A stretch of 64,000 nt of DNA. Source: Candidatus Parcubacteria bacterium (GTDB lineage: Bacteria; Patescibacteriota; Patescibacteriia; Patescibacteriales; UBA12075). The notes below the pieces were generated by a model. That model was not told the origin of the DNA. It worked only from the letters and a program-made list of their open reading frames with translations, and ran no database searches. This document shows, piece after piece, positions 6,856 to 64,000 of the stretch. Location of the stretch: positions 298,537-362,536 of the forward strand of contig CAWFCE010000002.1 in the NCBI GenBank assembly GCA_963814275.1, written 5' to 3'. A program made the translations under genes and the position numbers. The stretch's first letter is position 1. The number at the start of each line of letters is the position of its first letter.

Positions 6856-7560
6856 ATGAACGCACAAATATTTATAAATATGGATAATGAAAAATCAGGT
6901 TTTTTATTAATTAATAAGCCGAGCGGGCCGACGTCGCACGATATAGTCAATCAATTGCGCCGTGTTACGGGAATAAAAAAGATCGGCCATGCGGGCACGC
7001 TGGACCCTTTCGCCAGCGGGCTTTTGATCATGGCGGTCGGACGCGAGGCTACCCGGGAAATCAGCCATTTCGTTAAATTGGACAAAATGTATATCGCGAC
7101 ATTGCGGCTTGGTGCGGTAACAGACACCTTTGATCGAGAAGGAACCATTAAAACATCGAATGTCGAATGTCGAATGTCGAATGCAAAATTAGAAAAAATT
7201 CTGCGCCAGTTCATAGGTAAACAAAAACAAATTCCGCCGATGTATAGTGCCAAGAAGATCGGTGGTAAAAAGCTGTATCAGCTGGCCCGCCGCGGCATTA
7301 CGATCGAACGCGAACCGGTAGACATAGAGATATATGACATTGAATTAGCCGGATACGATTGGCCTATGCTCAAAATAAAAACCCGCGTTTCGAGCGGGAC
7401 TTATATACGGGCATTGGCGCGTGATATCGGATTGGCTCTCGGTTGCGGAGCCTATCTCCACGCGCTGGAACGAACCGCCATCGGCGGCTATAGTATATTG
7501 GATGCGTCCGGTCTTGATGCCCTTAAGGAGGATAATTGGCAAAAAAAGTTGTTTGTATAG
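6856..7560 (+). CDS. truB: tRNA pseudouridine(55) synthase
   Basis: GFLLINKPSGPTSHD, the catalytic Asp region GHAGTLDPFASGLL and QIPPMYSAKKIGGKKLY. The start could instead be the second Met at 6880. A heptamer repeat tract lies at 7156-7184. Confidence 0.9.
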   Translation: MNAQIFINMDNEKSGFLLINKPSGPTSHDIVNQLRRVTGIKKIGHAGTLDPFASGLLIMAVGREATREISHFVKLDKMYIATLRLGAVTDTFDREGTIKTSNVECRMSNAKLEKILRQFIGKQKQIPPMYSAKKIGGKKLYQLARRGITIEREPVDIEIYDIELAGYDWPMLKIKTRVSSGTYIRALARDIGLALGCGAYLHALERTAIGGYSILDASGLDALKEDNWQKKLFV

Positions 7561-26020: not shown

Positions 26021-26085
26021 GGGCGAGTGGTGGAATTGGTAGACACGCCCCGATTGCATCGGGGTGGCCGCACCCCGGTTTGTCG
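26021..26085 (+). pseudogene. tRNA-Leu-derived pseudo-tRNA (5' 28 nt identical to tRNA-Leu; anticodon arm replaced; no T arm)
   Basis: gggcgagtggtggaattggtagacacgc is identical to 26131-26158. It is followed by ccccg-attgcat-cgggg in place of the Leu anticodon arm, then tggccgca (shared), and then unrelated AT-rich sequence. Confidence 0.7.
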
Positions 26086-26130
26086 ATAAAGTATTAACAA
26101 CCATTTATTTTCAAACATATAATTACTTTT

Positions 26131-26457: not shown

Positions 26458-26606
26458 CATCATAAAACTACCTGCACTCAGGTAGTTTTATGATGTGGAG
26501 GTATAGACTCCGAGAACCCTGCCTGATTATTCGCGTTATTTTTGTTAAATGATCATTTTATTTTCTAAATATTTTAGTTTCATCTTTCAATTTTAATTGA
26601 TGGCGT

Positions 26607-26641
26607 GGGGCTTCCGCCCCTTCGAGTCCCTGTGCGTCCAC
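26607..26641 (+). repeat. Duplicated 3' fragment of tRNA-Val preceded by the GGGGCTTCCGCCCC hairpin
   Basis: ttcgagtccctgtgcgtccac (26621-26641) is identical to 26438-26458 of tRNA-Val. It is preceded by ggggcttccgcccc (26607-20). Confidence 0.8.
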
Positions 26642-40867: not shown

Positions 40868-40975
40868 CGCTACGCTCCCGATAATGATTTCTGAGCGGGT
40901 AACCCCGTACGACTCGCTTACGCTCGCTACGGGGCAGGCGGGAATCGAAGGGGGCGGAAGCCCCAATCCATCATA
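40868..40975 (-). repeat. Degenerate 3' fragment of tRNA-Gly plus a duplicated 36-nt flank
   Basis: The 36-nt direct repeat cgctacgctcccgataatgatttctgagcgggtaac occurs at 40868-40903 and 41087-41122. Read on the minus strand, the fragment is ggggcttccgccccc-ttcgattccc-g-[ccccgta..tacgggg hairpin]-ttacccgctca. Confidence 0.75.
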
Positions 40976-41112
40976 AATCAATGGGCCGTGCAATTGTTAT
41001 GTTAAATTCTCAAGGTTGATTCGATAGTTTTAAAGCCTTTGGTCAGTCGGGTTCTCACCGAGACCCGCTCATAAATCACTATCGTCCGCTACGCTCCCGA
41101 TAATGATTTCTG

Positions 41113-41346: not shown

Positions 41347-41351
41347 GGATT

Positions 41352-41423
41352 CAAATGACGAATGTCGAATTACGAATGTCGAAAGATATCCCATTCGTCA
41401 TTCGAAATTTGTAATTCGACATT
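41352..41423. repeat. Heptamer-word hairpin spacer (gaatgtc/gaattac words)
   Basis: aaatgacgaatgtcgaattacgaatgtcgaaag / cattcgtcattcgaaatttgtaattcgacattt form an imperfect palindrome between tRNA-Pro and tRNA-Phe. Confidence 0.8.
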
Positions 41424-41430
41424 TAAATTG

Positions 41431-41502: not shown

Positions 41503-41505
41503 CAG

Positions 41506-41588
41506 AGAAAGTAGAAAGTATAAAGTTGAAAGTACAAAGTTATGGTATAAAATAGTACTTTTAACTTTCAACTTTATACTTTCTACTT
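41506..41588. repeat. Heptamer-word hairpin spacer (gaaagta/aaagttg words)
   Basis: agaaagtagaaagtataaagttgaaagtacaaagtt ... gtacttttaactttcaactttatactttctactt. Confidence 0.8.
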
Positions 41589-41593
41589 AATTG

Positions 41594-41666
41594 TTGCGGG
41601 GGTCGGATTCGAACCGACGACCTCCAGGTTATGGGCCTGGCGAGCTGCCAGCTGCTCTACCCCGCG
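41594..41666 (-). tRNA. Initiator tRNA-fMet(CAU)
   Basis: Minus-strand read: cgcggggtagagcagctggcagctcgccaggccCATaacctggaggtcgtcggttcgaatccgacccccgcaa. A C1:A72 mismatch is present as in bacterial initiators. The anticodon loop cccataa has C rather than U at position 33. Confidence 0.8.
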
Positions 41667-41675
41667 CTAATAAAT

Positions 41676-41741
41676 TTCGAATTACGAATGTCGAATTAGT
41701 AAATTTTTTTATTCGTCATTCGACATTCGTAATTCGTCATT
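41676..41741. repeat. Heptamer-word hairpin spacer
   Basis: ttcgaattacgaatgtcgaatta ... attcgtcattcgacattcgtaattcgtcatt. Confidence 0.8.
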
Positions 41742-41749
41742 TGTAAGTG

Positions 41750-41823
41750 TGGGCGCACATGGATTCGAACCATGGACCTCGTCCTTATCAGGGACGCGCT
41801 CTAGCCAACTGAGCTATGCGCCC
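41750..41823 (-). tRNA. tRNA-Ile(GAU)
   Basis: Minus-strand read: gggcgcatagctcagttggctagagcgcgtccctGATaaggacgaggtccatggttcgaatccatgtgcgccca. Confidence 0.9.
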
Positions 41824-42119
41824 GGTATTTTAAAAATAAATTTATTTAAGATTGTAAATATCATTAGGATTTACCCTGGCGGATAATAGAGCGAAATATG
41901 GACCCTTGCCCCGTCGGATGACGGGGTCGTCCTTATCAGGGACGCGCTCTAGCCAACTGAGCTATGCGCCCGGTATTTTAAAAATAAATTTATTTAAGAT
42001 TGTAAATATCATTAGGATTTACCCTGGCGGATAATAGAGCGAAATATGGACCCTTGCCCCGTCGGATGACGGGGTCGTCCTTATCAGGGACGCGCTCTAG
42101 CCAACTGAGCTATGCGCCC
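41824..42119 (-). repeat. Two identical 148-bp tandem units, each a tRNA-Ile pseudogene (intact 5' half, GC hairpin insert, decayed 3' half)
   Basis: The 5' half gggcgcatagctcagttggctagagcgcgtccctgataaggacga recurs ending at 41971 and 42119. It is followed by ccccgtc-atcc-gacgggg and ggtccatatttcgctctattatccgcc (compare ggtccatggttcgaatccatgtgcgccc). Confidence 0.85.
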
Positions 42120-42482
42120 GAAGCAAATTTCGAATTACGAATGTCGAATGTCGAATTTATTTTTTACATAAATTAAAATCATAATATTCGTGAATTCGTA
42201 ATCCCAACAAAAAAGATTGGTTCTAGCTAAATTGAAGGACCAATCTTTTTTGCTTGGTAAAAAAGGAACGGCCCCATAAACCGTTTATGGAGCTAGTAAG
42301 CACCAATTTGCTAGACCACCTTACGACTACCGTGGTAAGGATTTTATCCTGAATCAGAATAAATTCTGATCCATGTACCCTTCCGGAACTTCCGGAAAAG
42401 CCGACCGTAGGAATTCAGAACTGGAATTCGAAACCGAGATTTGGCATTCGACATTCGTAATTCGTCATTCCCGATGTCTCCC

Positions 42483-44078
<1,596 letters not shown>

Positions 44079-44618
44079 GAAAAGTTTTTTGACAGGTTTA
44101 CTTGCCTGTTTAAGCAATGTTGTGTAAACACGAACAGTGCTTAAGGAATATATGAGGAAAATGAGTTTCCTAATTGTTTGTACTTGGTTGTTGCAAATTG
44201 GCGCTTATTAGCGCCATATTATATTCGGTTGTTAATGACCGCAAACGCGATAAATTTGCCTTCCCGCCAGATAAGCAAAAAACAGACCTTACAGCCTGTT
44301 ATCAAGTGTAAGCGGGTCGGTTTTTGGTTTTGTTTTTAGATTGTCATGGATTTATCGCAATTTGTTATTGCAATAATAATATTAAAGGATTTGCCGAAAT
44401 CTGTCAAGGCAATTCAGATAGTAGATAACGGATAGCAGATAGCAGCCAATTTTTTATTTAATATTAAATGATTTATTTAATAAACGAGCTAATATTAGTT
44501 TCCCGGGGTGTGATTAAGGAAAATTATAAATTTATATACAATCAAATTCCGGTTATTTATCAAGAGTATTTGCACAGGTTTTGAACATATTTAAAATGCG
44601 TTTTAAAAAAATTATTTT

Positions 44619-50223: not shown

Positions 50224-50341
50224 TGGTCAAGTGCTAAAAGTCAAATTCGGAGAGGTGGCTCGAGTGGTTGCCCGCGACATAGCCGCTTGGCGGCTCGCGC
50301 GGGTCCGCGCACCCGCGAAGCGGGATGTCGCGGAAAGGCTT

Positions 50342-50587
50342 ATGTATTATACATATTTTTTATTTAGTAAAAACCATAAAAAGGTTTATGTCGGTTCGAC
50401 CGAAGATTTGAAGACCAGAATCAAAACACATAATGAAGGCAGGGTGCAATCGACAAGATATTATCGGCCATGGGTAATTGTGTATTATGAGGCCCATCGC
50501 AATAAAACATTGGCAAGAAAAGCCGAACTTTTCTATAAATCCAGCCAAGGCAGGCGGCAAGTAAAAAAGAAATTAGGTTTAGAGTAA
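50342..50587 (+). CDS. Small GIY-YIG nuclease (81 aa; 82 codons incl. stop), copy 1
   Basis: MYYTYFLFSKNHKKVYVGSTEDLKTRIKTHNEGRVQSTRYYRPWVIVYYEAHRNKTLARKAELFYK... carries the GIY (YTYFL) and YIG (VYVGST) motifs, the conserved Arg and the conserved Glu. The track's upstream extension translates the tRNA fragment and hairpins, so I rejected it. Confidence 0.8.
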   Translation: MYYTYFLFSKNHKKVYVGSTEDLKTRIKTHNEGRVQSTRYYRPWVIVYYEAHRNKTLARKAELFYKSSQGRRQVKKKLGLE

Positions 50588-50697
50588 TATTATTATAGAT
50601 TTCCGGAGAGGTGGCTCGAGTGGTTGCCCGCGACGTAGCCGCTTGGCGGCTCGCGCGGGTCCGCGCACCCGCGAAGCGGGATGTCGCGGAAAGGCTT

Positions 50698-50943
50698 ATG
50701 TATTATACATATTTTTTATTTAGTAAAAACCATAAAAAGGTTTATGTCGGTTCAACCGAAGATTTGAAGACCAGAATCAAAACACATAATGAAGGCAGGG
50801 TGCAATCGACAAGATATTATCGGCCATGGGTAATTGTGTATTATGAGGCCCATCGCAATAAAACATTGGCAAGAAAAGCCGAACTTTTCTATAAATCCAG
50901 CCAAGGCAGGCGGCAAGTAAAAAAGAAATTAGGTTTAGAGTAA
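50698..50943 (+). CDS. Small GIY-YIG nuclease, copy 2
   Basis: The protein is identical to copy 1, with one synonymous tcg-to-tca change. Confidence 0.8.
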   Translation: MYYTYFLFSKNHKKVYVGSTEDLKTRIKTHNEGRVQSTRYYRPWVIVYYEAHRNKTLARKAELFYKSSQGRRQVKKKLGLE

Positions 50944-51053
50944 TATTATTATAGATTTCCGGAGAGGTGGCTCGAGTGGTTGCCCGCGACGTAGCCGCTT
51001 GGCGGCTCGCGCGGGTCCGCGCACCCGCGAAGCGGGATGTCGCGGAAAGGCTT

Positions 51054-51300
51054 ATGTATTATACATATTTTTTATTTAGTAAAAACCATAAAAAGGTTTA
51101 TGTCGGTTCGAACCGAAGATTTGAAGACCAGAATCAAAACACATAATGAAGGCAGGGTGCAATCGACAAGATATTATCGGCCATGGGTAATTGTGTATTA
51201 TGAGGCCCATCGCAATAAAACATTGGCAAGAAAAGCCGAACTTTTCTATAAATCCAGCCAAGGCAGGCGGCAAGTAAAAAAGAAATTAGGTTTAGAGTAA
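51054..51300 (+). pseudogene. GIY-YIG nuclease copy 3, frameshifted
   Basis: gtcggttcgAaccgaag has one extra base relative to copies 1 and 2, and the frame breaks right after the YVGS motif. Confidence 0.75.
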
Positions 51301-51317
51301 TATTATTATAGATTTCC

Positions 51318-51408
51318 GGAGAGGTGGCTCGAGTGGTTGAAGGCGTCGCTCTCGAAAAGCGATGTGCGTGCAAGCGTACCGGGAGTTCGAATCTCCCCCT
51401 CTCCGCCA
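51318..51408 (+). tRNA. tRNA-Ser(CGA), CCA encoded
   Basis: ggagaggtggctcgagtggttgaaggcgtcgctctCGAaaagcgatgtgcgtgcaagcgtaccgggagttcgaatctccccctctccgcca, with a long variable arm. Confidence 0.9.
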
Positions 51409-60120: not shown

Positions 60121-60544
60121 GATAATTACCAAATAAAGACAAAATTAATAGTAATCATCTTTTATGAGTTACTCCATAACTACTAAATGCAAAAGCGGTT
60201 GATGCACTAGCTGGTTTAAAGTGTGGTCAAACCGCTTTAAAGCGGTTTTTTGTTTCAAATCTGGCTTAGTCCTTTCAATTAAAGAGAAAAACGGTCCAAT
60301 CGAATTCAGGAATCTATTAATCAACTCGGATGCTGTGAAAACAAATTCGGAGCATCCGGATATAGTTCGTAGATTCGGATTATGAGTTGAACTTTAACAA
60401 TTCAATATAGTCCGCAGTTCCCGACAGAACTGCGGACAATTAAGAGCATCAAACCATCCGGCATCGCAATGCCGGATAATCGAAGAGTCCGTTCATAGAG
60501 CGATCTATGGACAAAAACGTTTTTGAAACCAAAAACGTGGGAAA

Positions 60545-64000
<3,456 letters not shown>

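Follow-up and report, generated by a model that had tools for sequence, protein, structure and literature searches.

Why is the one intact gene for isoleucine transfer RNA (tRNA-Ile) in a stretch of patescibacterial DNA preceded by two identical, broken copies of its own 5' part? The stretch (hereafter the window) is 64,000 nt of a 1.27-Mb genome, holds ten tRNA genes in total, and belongs to a Parcubacteria/Falkowbacteria-like member of the Patescibacteria, the nearest TrmD to which in a species-representative genome collection is 75% identical. The answer that we favor, and to which we give about an even chance of being right, is that the broken units are copies of a homing-type cassette that resides in the tRNA gene and lacks an open reading frame (ORF), stacked by out-of-register recombination. 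The mechanism is one that we infer; what was directly observed is the anatomy of the array, where the insert stands with respect to the native flanks, the presence of the array in a second assembly, and the recurrence of the layout at other tRNA genes.

On the minus strand the 16S ribosomal RNA (rRNA) gene (44084-42486) is followed by a 366-nt spacer, unit 1, unit 2, tRNA-Ile(GAU), and then tRNA-Met, tRNA-Phe, tRNA-Pro, and tRNA-Gly. The parts of the array are as follows.

41749..41823, minus strand: functional tRNA-Ile(GAU), the single tRNA-Ile(GAU) called by ARAGORN and Rfam (Rfam tRNA, 72.6 bits)
41779-41823, minus strand: positions 1-45 of the functional tRNA-Ile, preceded, according to the flank comparison, by the putative cassette spacer
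42119-41972, minus strand: unit 1, whole, exactly 148 bp
42075..42119, minus strand: outer 5' piece of unit 1, tRNA-Ile positions 1-45, identical to the gene at 45/45 positions
42053..42074, minus strand: 22-nt insert of unit 1 in the variable loop, between positions 45 and 46, made of the hairpin CCCCGTC-ATCC-GACGGGG (42057-42074) and CAAG
42025..42052, minus strand: decayed tRNA-Ile 3'-half remnant of unit 1 (GGTCCATATTTCGCTCTATTATCCGCCA), 28 nt, identical to the gene at 21/30 aligned columns
41972..42024, minus strand: AT-rich spacer of the putative cassette in unit 1, 53 nt, 19% G+C, with no heptamer repeats
41824..41971, minus strand: unit 2, an exact copy of unit 1 (5' piece 41927-41971, insert 41905-41926, remnant 41877-41904, spacer 41824-41876)

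Tandem Repeats Finder reported the repeat at 41779-42120, with a period of 148, 2.3 copies, and 100% matches, and a separate repeat search returned two 148-nt copies that were 100% identical. Together with one shared upstream C, tRNA positions 1-45 form a 46-bp direct repeat that is present in three copies. The hairpin, whose 7-bp stem is CCCCGTC/GACGGGG, occurs at 42057-42074 and 41909-41926, with no third copy in the 64-kb window at three or fewer mismatches; folded as DNA it has an energy of -8.7 kcal/mol (z = -4.0). The remnant begins precisely at tRNA position 46, where the 5' piece ends, and its best local match to the real 3' half is 11/13 (shuffle p ~0.009).

The units do not have the makings of a functional tRNA, that is, a full cloverleaf with a T arm and a 7-bp acceptor stem. 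On the Rfam tRNA model they score 29.2 bits against a threshold of 29, a score that comes from the 5' 45 nt and a 6/7 acceptor closure; the T arm is absent, and its region appears as 31 unaligned nt in the Rfam tRNA alignment. Beyond this borderline match, no Rfam family was found for the units at permissive thresholds, and they contain no ORF longer than 45 aa. A first-pass annotation, made from the letters of the window alone, had described two exact 148-bp tandem units composed of a perfect tRNA 5' part, a CCCCG hairpin, a decayed 3' half, and an AT-rich spacer, and had taken them for ORF-less pseudo-tRNA pieces; all of these points were borne out.

Several other identities were considered for the unit or its parts and rejected. 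To see the hairpin as the long variable arm of a class-II-like tRNA would require the missing T arm. An intron-containing or split tRNA of the archaeal type, with both exon parts intact, should be restored once the 22-nt insert is taken out, yet the 3' half that results lacks a T arm and its acceptor strand is broken. The hairpin is not an intrinsic terminator, as no T run follows it, and it is not palindromic filler copied from adjoining broken ends, as the flanking sequence is mismatched. A scan found no promoter in the spacer, where hexamers noted by eye stand 19-20 nt apart.

Where, then, does the added sequence lie relative to the resident gene? The array and the gene are together bracketed by a pair of arms composed of heptamer repeats.

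42124..42156, minus strand: native heptamer-repeat arm immediately upstream of unit 1, 91% complementary to 41711-41743 (inverted repeat I3)
41711..41743, minus strand: matching heptamer-repeat arm just 3' of the functional tRNA-Ile

The tRNA-Met and tRNA-Pro genes of the cluster are directly preceded by the same type of arm (attcgacattcgtaattcgaaattt...). Within the array only unit 1 has such an arm upstream; what precedes unit 2 and the working gene is the heptamer-free AT-rich spacer, for which no significant match was found upstream of the array or downstream of the gene. Because the native flanks bracket the whole array, the resident gene in effect contains an extra 296 bp (twice the sum of a body and a 5' piece) between its positions 45 and 46. 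By the same comparison positions 46-75 of the functional gene are in their native downstream context, and the outermost 5' piece is probably the resident 5' piece, displaced. The 5' piece of the working gene would have arrived with a unit, so that the gene would have been interrupted and its displaced part replaced, as expected of a homing cassette. Duplication of a gene with its flank predicts that the flank is copied and that decay is even, and hence neither an unduplicated heptamer arm nor a perfect piece beside a damaged one. Here the heptamer arm is unduplicated, and uniform decay does not fit, since the 5' piece is intact at 45/45 positions and the 3' remnant at 21/30.

Heptamer repeats make up the inter-tRNA spacers more generally. 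They are of the CGAATGT/ACGAATT or AGAAAGT types, are arranged as long inverted repeats that resemble processing stems, and were seen at 41350-41430, 41505-41590, 41665-41755, and 42124-42200 and elsewhere in the window (for example, at 7156, 51455, and 58485). The heptamers differ in related genomes, as in the case of GTTAATT in L009 (L-numbers denote compared loci or contigs of other genomes or strains).

That the array is real is indicated by evidence at the level of two assemblies, the window and ENA ERZ25039495, a 15.6-kb contig of which also carries the annotated 132-aa S16 of the window (P0001). The contig is 99.7% identical to the window across 3,547 nt, with nine single-nucleotide polymorphisms (SNPs) and one 219-bp insertion or deletion (indel), after which comes a stretch that is 96% identical. 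The indel and the 96%-identical stretch indicate that the contig is from a different strain. As in the window, it has two Ile units and the gene; the hairpin of its unit 1 carries a single G-to-A substitution. Since a second strain's assembly has two units, the array is not an artifact of one assembly; a single tRNA-Ile with no units, which the first-pass annotation had named as the sign of an artifact, is not what this assembly contains. The G-to-A change is the only polymorphism seen in the units, and it costs one stem pair; as it weakens the hairpin, it lends no support to selection on RNA structure.

Whole units are gained or lost over a very short timescale. A 219-bp tRNA-Gly unit is present once in the window and as two identical copies in the sister strain whose contig, L084, was compared with it (L084:3293-3766). 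Given this lability, the two identical Ile units need only recombination between the 46-bp repeats. The sister-strain contig appears to stop just short of the tRNA-Ser array described below. Of two processes that had been suggested earlier, ongoing duplication is thus supported, whereas gene conversion driven from the 5' side is not needed, because only the outermost 5' piece is in its native context, which fits an insert that brings a replacement 5' piece.

A related unit that does contain a gene is found at tRNA-Ser.

50248..51339, plus strand: tRNA-Ser(CGA) 5'-type array, upstream of the gene, 3.1 units of 356 bp

Each 356-bp unit combines 22 nt from the 5' end of the tRNA with a GC-rich double hairpin and an ORF of 81 aa (with a frameshift in copy 3), which corresponds to the GIY-YIG catalytic domain (Pfam E = 7e-16). 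Homologs that are 60-72% identical are found in Komeilibacteria, Uhrbacteria, and other Patescibacteria, and in six of the six other genomes checked (L086, L087, L089, L091, L103, and L104) the homolog is directly upstream of a tRNA-Ser gene. The anticodons at these six loci are CGA, GCT, or TGA, and the neighboring genes are unrelated. At all six a 5' fragment of tRNA-Ser is accompanied by a double hairpin rich in G and C (YCCGC..GCGGR, then TCCGCGCA..TCGCGGA), located in the D loop or the anticodon loop, and the stems of the double hairpin covary (CCCGCG/CGCGGG, CCCGTG/CACGGG, and CCCACG/CGTGGG). A more distant homolog, 49% identical, is not linked to a tRNA gene, and no relatives of the protein were found in viral contigs. 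Judged by these sequences, a cassette with a putative nuclease gene, tied to one tRNA family, exists, and the Ile units match its architecture minus the ORF. Indeed, the likeness to tRNA-Ser that the first-pass annotation had remarked on extends to the whole layout: an outer 5' fragment, one or more GC hairpins at the break, a remainder, a spacer, and the intact gene.

Some of the tRNA-Ser loci have further peculiarities. L104 appears to carry two tandem GIY-YIG ORFs, and in L086 (3050-3747) the cassette-bearing tRNA-Ser is followed at once, at the end of the contig, by a gene for a serine recombinase (Resolvase domain). In L089 (2850-3120) a near-full-length second copy of tRNA-Ser, without the 5' acceptor strand, is located downstream of tRNA-Ser(GCT); its D loop and its T loop are each interrupted by double hairpins, and its variable arm differs from that of the live gene by paired changes (GGGG/CCCT vs ACCC/GGGT).

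How widespread is the layout? We scanned every tRNA gene in the window and in 80 related or syntenic loci for adjacent tRNA fragments. Adjacent units were found at five of the ten tRNAs of the window (Leu, Val, Gly, Ile, and Ser) and at 13 or more tRNAs in the related patescibacterial loci. The remaining units of the window are these.

26021..26130, plus strand: tRNA-Leu(GAG) 5'-type unit, upstream of the gene, with positions 1-28 intact, the hairpin CCCCGAT-TGC-ATCGGGG, and a decayed remainder
26459..26641, plus strand: tRNA-Val 3'-type unit, downstream of the gene, with a decayed 5' part, the hairpin GGGGCTTCCGCCCC, and an intact copy of the T loop to the 3' end
40868..41111, minus strand: tRNA-Gly 3'-type nested unit, downstream of the gene, with GGGGCTTCCGCCCC and a decayed T-loop piece, a CCCCGTA..TACGGGG hairpin (40903-40934), and an intact 3' end plus flank

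In the units that were examined in detail, the outer tRNA piece has suffered little or no damage, the inner piece (on the side of the gene) is degenerate, and a GC-rich sequence, a clear hairpin in most cases, stands at the break. The breakpoints are mostly in tRNA loops (D, anticodon, variable, or T). More than 15 tRNAs showed this asymmetry between an intact outer and a decayed inner piece, some with the pseudo-copy upstream of the gene and others with it downstream. Breaks can be nested: in the Gly unit an older break of the T-loop type (GGGGCTTCCGCCCC) is itself interrupted by the CCCCGTA..TACGGGG hairpin. The Ile hairpin shares only its CCCCG/CGGGG ends with the Leu and Gly hairpins. Palindromes of the form CCCCG..CGGGG are concentrated near tRNA genes, with 11 of 28 located within 400 nt of a tRNA, a zone that makes up 6.3% of the sequence (p = 5e-7), and 7 of 23 near a tRNA when the window is left out (p = 4e-4).

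At tRNA-Ile itself, most syntenic relatives have no detected 5' or 3' fragment beside the gene, and differently broken units are found in two: a 5' unit with the hairpin CCCCGCC-TCG-GCGGGG in the D loop in L009, and a 3' unit with its break at the T stem in L013. Stacking is also seen at tRNA-Pro in L031 (14200-14896), where the gene is preceded by at least five 13-nt 5' fragments in two unit types (83 and 100 nt), each fragment followed by a CCCCG..CGGGG hairpin in the D loop; the record of this array contains a run of N. Apparently orthologous Pro units in L013, L017, and L020 have one, four, and zero changes in the outer piece, respectively, and a common inner part that is degenerate in all three, a pattern which indicates that the outer piece decays after the event and that the inner piece was already old when the event occurred. 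In L016 the terminator hairpins that follow the live tRNA-Gly and the outer fragment are homologous and differ by paired changes, which would fit the arrival of a cassette from a diverged relative. Covariation between the inner 5' and outer 3' strands of T-loop units does not discriminate, as a decayed tRNA copy predicts the same pattern.

The 3' units of Pro or Gly in eight loci share a motif, cGG.GTGGGGCTTCCGCCCC, directly before the T loop, and no copy of the T-loop hairpin motif was found in viral contigs. The motif precedes a duplicated T loop-to-3' end of tRNA-Pro, Gly, or Val in L013, L014, L016, L017, L018, L020, and L022 and in the window. Its copies in the window (26604-26620 and 40951-40967) were matched by no Rfam family, and the duplicate that it tags lies 95-185 nt downstream of the live gene, usually past a terminator-like hairpin.

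Is the array part of the rRNA transcript? The first-pass annotation had placed it just downstream of the 16S gene and supposed that the two would be co-transcribed. It is indeed downstream but not adjacent: the array starts 366 nt past the end of 16S, and two hairpins intervene (42203-42293, minus strand), the first flagged as terminator-like by a scan and the second (AAAAAGATTGGT..ACCAATCTTTTT) ending in a T run and conserved in the relative L009 (L009:140-240). Terminator-like hairpins in this position make co-transcription doubtful, and the tRNA cluster may be transcribed separately from 16S. A weak promoter-like site lies after the hairpins, of a kind no commoner than in shuffled sequence. 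The rRNA genes are themselves unlinked, with 16S (42486-44084, minus strand) and 23S (60541-64000, plus strand) ~16 kb apart on opposite strands. The 23S match spans model positions 1-2813 within 3,460 nt and so includes ~650 nt of insertions, possibly introns.

How might such an array have arisen? We envision a cassette made up of the GC hairpin, an old remnant of a tRNA-Ile 3' half, the AT-rich spacer, and a replacement tRNA-Ile 5' part. Its insertion in the variable loop, between positions 45 and 46, would push the resident 5' piece upstream, where it is dead, and the 5' piece of the cassette would join the resident 3' half in a working gene. The cassette would be copied into the tRNA gene by recombinational repair in the manner of a homing element. 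The donor's outer tRNA fragment and its intact gene would serve as two homology arms, so that no homology outside the tRNA would be required; arms internal to the tRNA fit the unrelated neighbors of the Ser cassettes. The intact gene would remain a target or a partner for misalignment; after a break or misalignment in it, out-of-register repair at the 46-bp repeats would add or remove whole units, giving two identical copies. The hairpin would mark the end of the cassette and might act to disrupt the target site, as a barrier to conversion or to heteroduplex spread, or as a structure recognized by a nuclease. The Ile copy, which has no nuclease gene, would be a non-autonomous element or a relic. 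Recognition of structure rather than sequence is speculation, but would fit both the position of the breakpoints in loops and a GIY-YIG protein that consists of a catalytic domain only.

This proposal can be taken further, to a claim that we regard as possible but doubtful, namely, that Patescibacteria harbor a previously undescribed class of selfish cassettes that home into tRNA genes by way of tRNA halves, with minimal GIY-YIG elements as the autonomous members, hairpin-tagged elements of ~100 bp as the non-autonomous ones, and repeated cutting with out-of-register repair as the cause of their stacking beside a substantial fraction of tRNA genes. If such a class exists, the 81-aa GIY-YIG protein may recognize folded or hairpin DNA at tRNA loops.

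A number of observations weigh against the homing-type explanation of the Ile units. No nuclease gene was found in or near them, and an enzyme that cuts tRNA-Ile is hypothetical. The 81-aa GIY-YIG protein of the Ser units consists of the catalytic domain alone, so that sequence-specific homing by it is no more than putative; a comparison with solved structures yielded no sequence relative. No empty-site allele of tRNA-Ile was found in this species. No second genome was found to have a related tRNA-Ile cassette body: a BLAST search of the 103-nt Ile unit body against the 80 related loci gave only chance AT-rich matches, and the junction pattern GGACGACCCCGTCNNNNGACGGGG had three matches in a metagenome collection, none of them linked to a tRNA. 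Hairpin sequences vary among cassettes except at their CCCCG/CGGGG or GGGGC/GCCCC ends. The rapid mutation of heptamer-repeat flanks makes arguments from flank divergence less strong, and the two assemblies might share a sequencing technology. One of the three junction-pattern matches (L081:5937-6030), on an unrelated metagenome contig, is an intergenic pair of CCCCGTC-NNNN-GACGGGG-type hairpins flanking an inverted repeat; it resembles a repetitive extragenic palindromic (REP) element.

What else could have produced the array? An origin in place, which we consider somewhat unlikely, would begin with a tandem duplication of tRNA-Ile; a palindromic insert would have killed the upstream copy, its 3' half would have decayed while unequal crossing-over or conversion kept the 5' part identical, and a recent doubling would have followed. 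Such a history is in keeping with a remnant that is colinear with the whole tRNA and begins exactly at position 46, and with units that are 100% identical to one another. Recombination between repeats does occur, as shown by the difference between strains in the number of whole tRNA-Gly units, and the hairpin would be a heterology barrier at which conversion tracts end. Hard to reconcile with this history are an upstream heptamer flank that was not copied and a spacer with no significant match to either flank, as are an asymmetry that recurs at more than 15 tRNAs, whether the pseudo-copy is upstream or downstream, and the Pro units, in which the outer piece decays instead of being homogenized. 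Moreover, intact tandem tRNA duplicates, the precursor that would be needed, were not seen in related loci. Duplication in place fits the flank data and the recurrent asymmetry less well than a cassette does. A function as RNA, which strikes us as improbable, would see the units as a structured 5' leader of the tRNA operon or as the source of RNAs or decoys resembling tRNA-Ile 5' halves, with selection preserving the hairpin and the first 45 nt. No differences are seen in the 5' piece among its three copies or between the two strains, the units stand between the promoter-like site and the tRNA operon, a unit folds somewhat better than shuffled sequences (z = -2.3), a 6/7 acceptor-like closure is possible, and the hairpin stems of the tRNA-Ser cassette covary. 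Set against these points, the units match no Rfam family, the unit body is not conserved in any relative, the Ile breakpoints and hairpin sequences differ among the window, L009, and L013, the sole polymorphism removes a hairpin base pair, and Pro outer fragments accumulate changes; with no T arm, processing by RNase P and RNase Z would not be expected.

We think it very improbable that the array is the scar of an island that entered the tRNA gene by means of an integrase, duplicated its attachment site, and was later lost. The standard signature of an integrating element, complete and partial tRNA direct repeats around an insert (PMC9897764), is present, in that the 46-bp repeat occurs three times and brackets bodies of 102 bp. 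An insert of only 102 bp, exactly repeated, is however far from kilobase-sized, and inserts just as small are found at many tRNAs. It is usually the 3' part of a tRNA that bacterial integrases duplicate, whereas the repeat here is the 5' part (positions 1-45). Nor was any integrase or recombinase found within ~6 kb on either side, where the genes encode S16, a KH-domain protein, TrmD, GH1, EamA, Wzy, and an RluB-like protein, along with two ORFs that have no Pfam match. An assembly artifact, in the form of a collapsed or expanded repeat, is scarcely credible: exact tandem repeats are error-prone in assemblies, but the ERZ25039495 contig has two units and the gene, its own units are separated by one SNP, and it differs from the window by nine SNPs and the 219-bp indel.

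Returning to the homing-type cassette, how does it compare with systems already described? Integrating elements (prophages, integrative and conjugative elements, and genomic islands) are well known to duplicate tRNA genes in part; PYG1 of Pyrococcus yayanosii, with 44-bp repeats, is an example (PMC9897764). Like such elements, the Ile array has complete and partial tRNA sequences as direct repeats of ~45 bp and an insert that supplies the piece that keeps the gene whole, and its stacking resembles the tandem accretion of islands. Unlike them, it has an insert of 102 bp rather than 9-23 kb, lacks an integrase, repeats the 5' part of the tRNA, and carries a GC hairpin at the break followed by a decayed tRNA remainder, and the breakpoints here are mostly in tRNA loops rather than at an integrase-specific sublocation. 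SegB of phage T4 is a free-standing GIY-YIG homing endonuclease in a tRNA gene cluster (PMC2330249). The GIY-YIG gene of the tRNA-Ser cassette is likewise embedded among tRNA genes, and its proposed spread, by break repair that copies the nuclease gene and adjoining tRNA sequence, would be similar. SegB is a multi-domain, site-specific enzyme and is not known to leave duplicated tRNA fragments or hairpins, in contrast to which the protein of the Ser cassette has 81 aa and the catalytic domain only, and the tRNA-Ile units are without any ORF.

Mitochondrial endonuclease ORFs insert into a gene and bring along a duplicate of its end, as does the GIY-YIG ORF at atp6 of Allomyces. As in that case, the element would replace the displaced part of the host gene, and the displaced part persists as a pseudo-fragment. 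The mitochondrial cases involve protein genes of organelles and a duplicated 3' end, and are not known to include a hairpin tag or tandem stacking; the cassettes considered here are found at tRNA genes of bacteria and in many instances lack an ORF. Short GC-rich hairpins in AT-rich noncoding DNA, and sometimes in RNA genes, are known from the GC clusters of yeast mitochondria, REP sequences and bacterial interspersed mosaic elements (BIMEs), and the palindromic elements of Rickettsia. Such palindromic mobile elements occur as many dispersed, near-identical copies with a short target duplication or none. Each hairpin sequence described here, by contrast, is local to one tRNA unit, is associated with a repeat of 13-46 bp of the tRNA, and comes with a replacement piece of the tRNA. 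A miniature inverted-repeat transposable element (MITE) or REP-like element was rejected as an identity for the Ile hairpin on similar grounds, in that many dispersed copies would be expected and the hairpin was found only in the two unit copies (64 kb, three or fewer mismatches). In the literature that we searched, no description of hairpin-tagged tRNA fragments in these bacteria was found. What differs from known systems is the size of ~100 bp, the existence of mirror-image versions with 5' and 3' pieces, the hairpin at the break, the tandem stacking, and the frequency within one bacterial group.

The Ile locus is a modest, ORF-less example, and its main value is that it exposes a wider pattern; if only local duplication is at work, it is an ordinary pseudogene array. 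Units of this kind inflate or confuse the annotation of tRNAs and may break short-read assemblies, and their copy number can be used as a strain marker. If the cassette explanation is correct, the tRNA genes of such very small genomes are continually assailed by tiny elements, which persist by rebuilding the genes they enter. A role could then be suggested for the very small GIY-YIG proteins encoded beside tRNA-Ser genes, and self-splicing introns and the attachment sites of integrases would be joined by a third means by which a mobile element can reside within an essential RNA gene.

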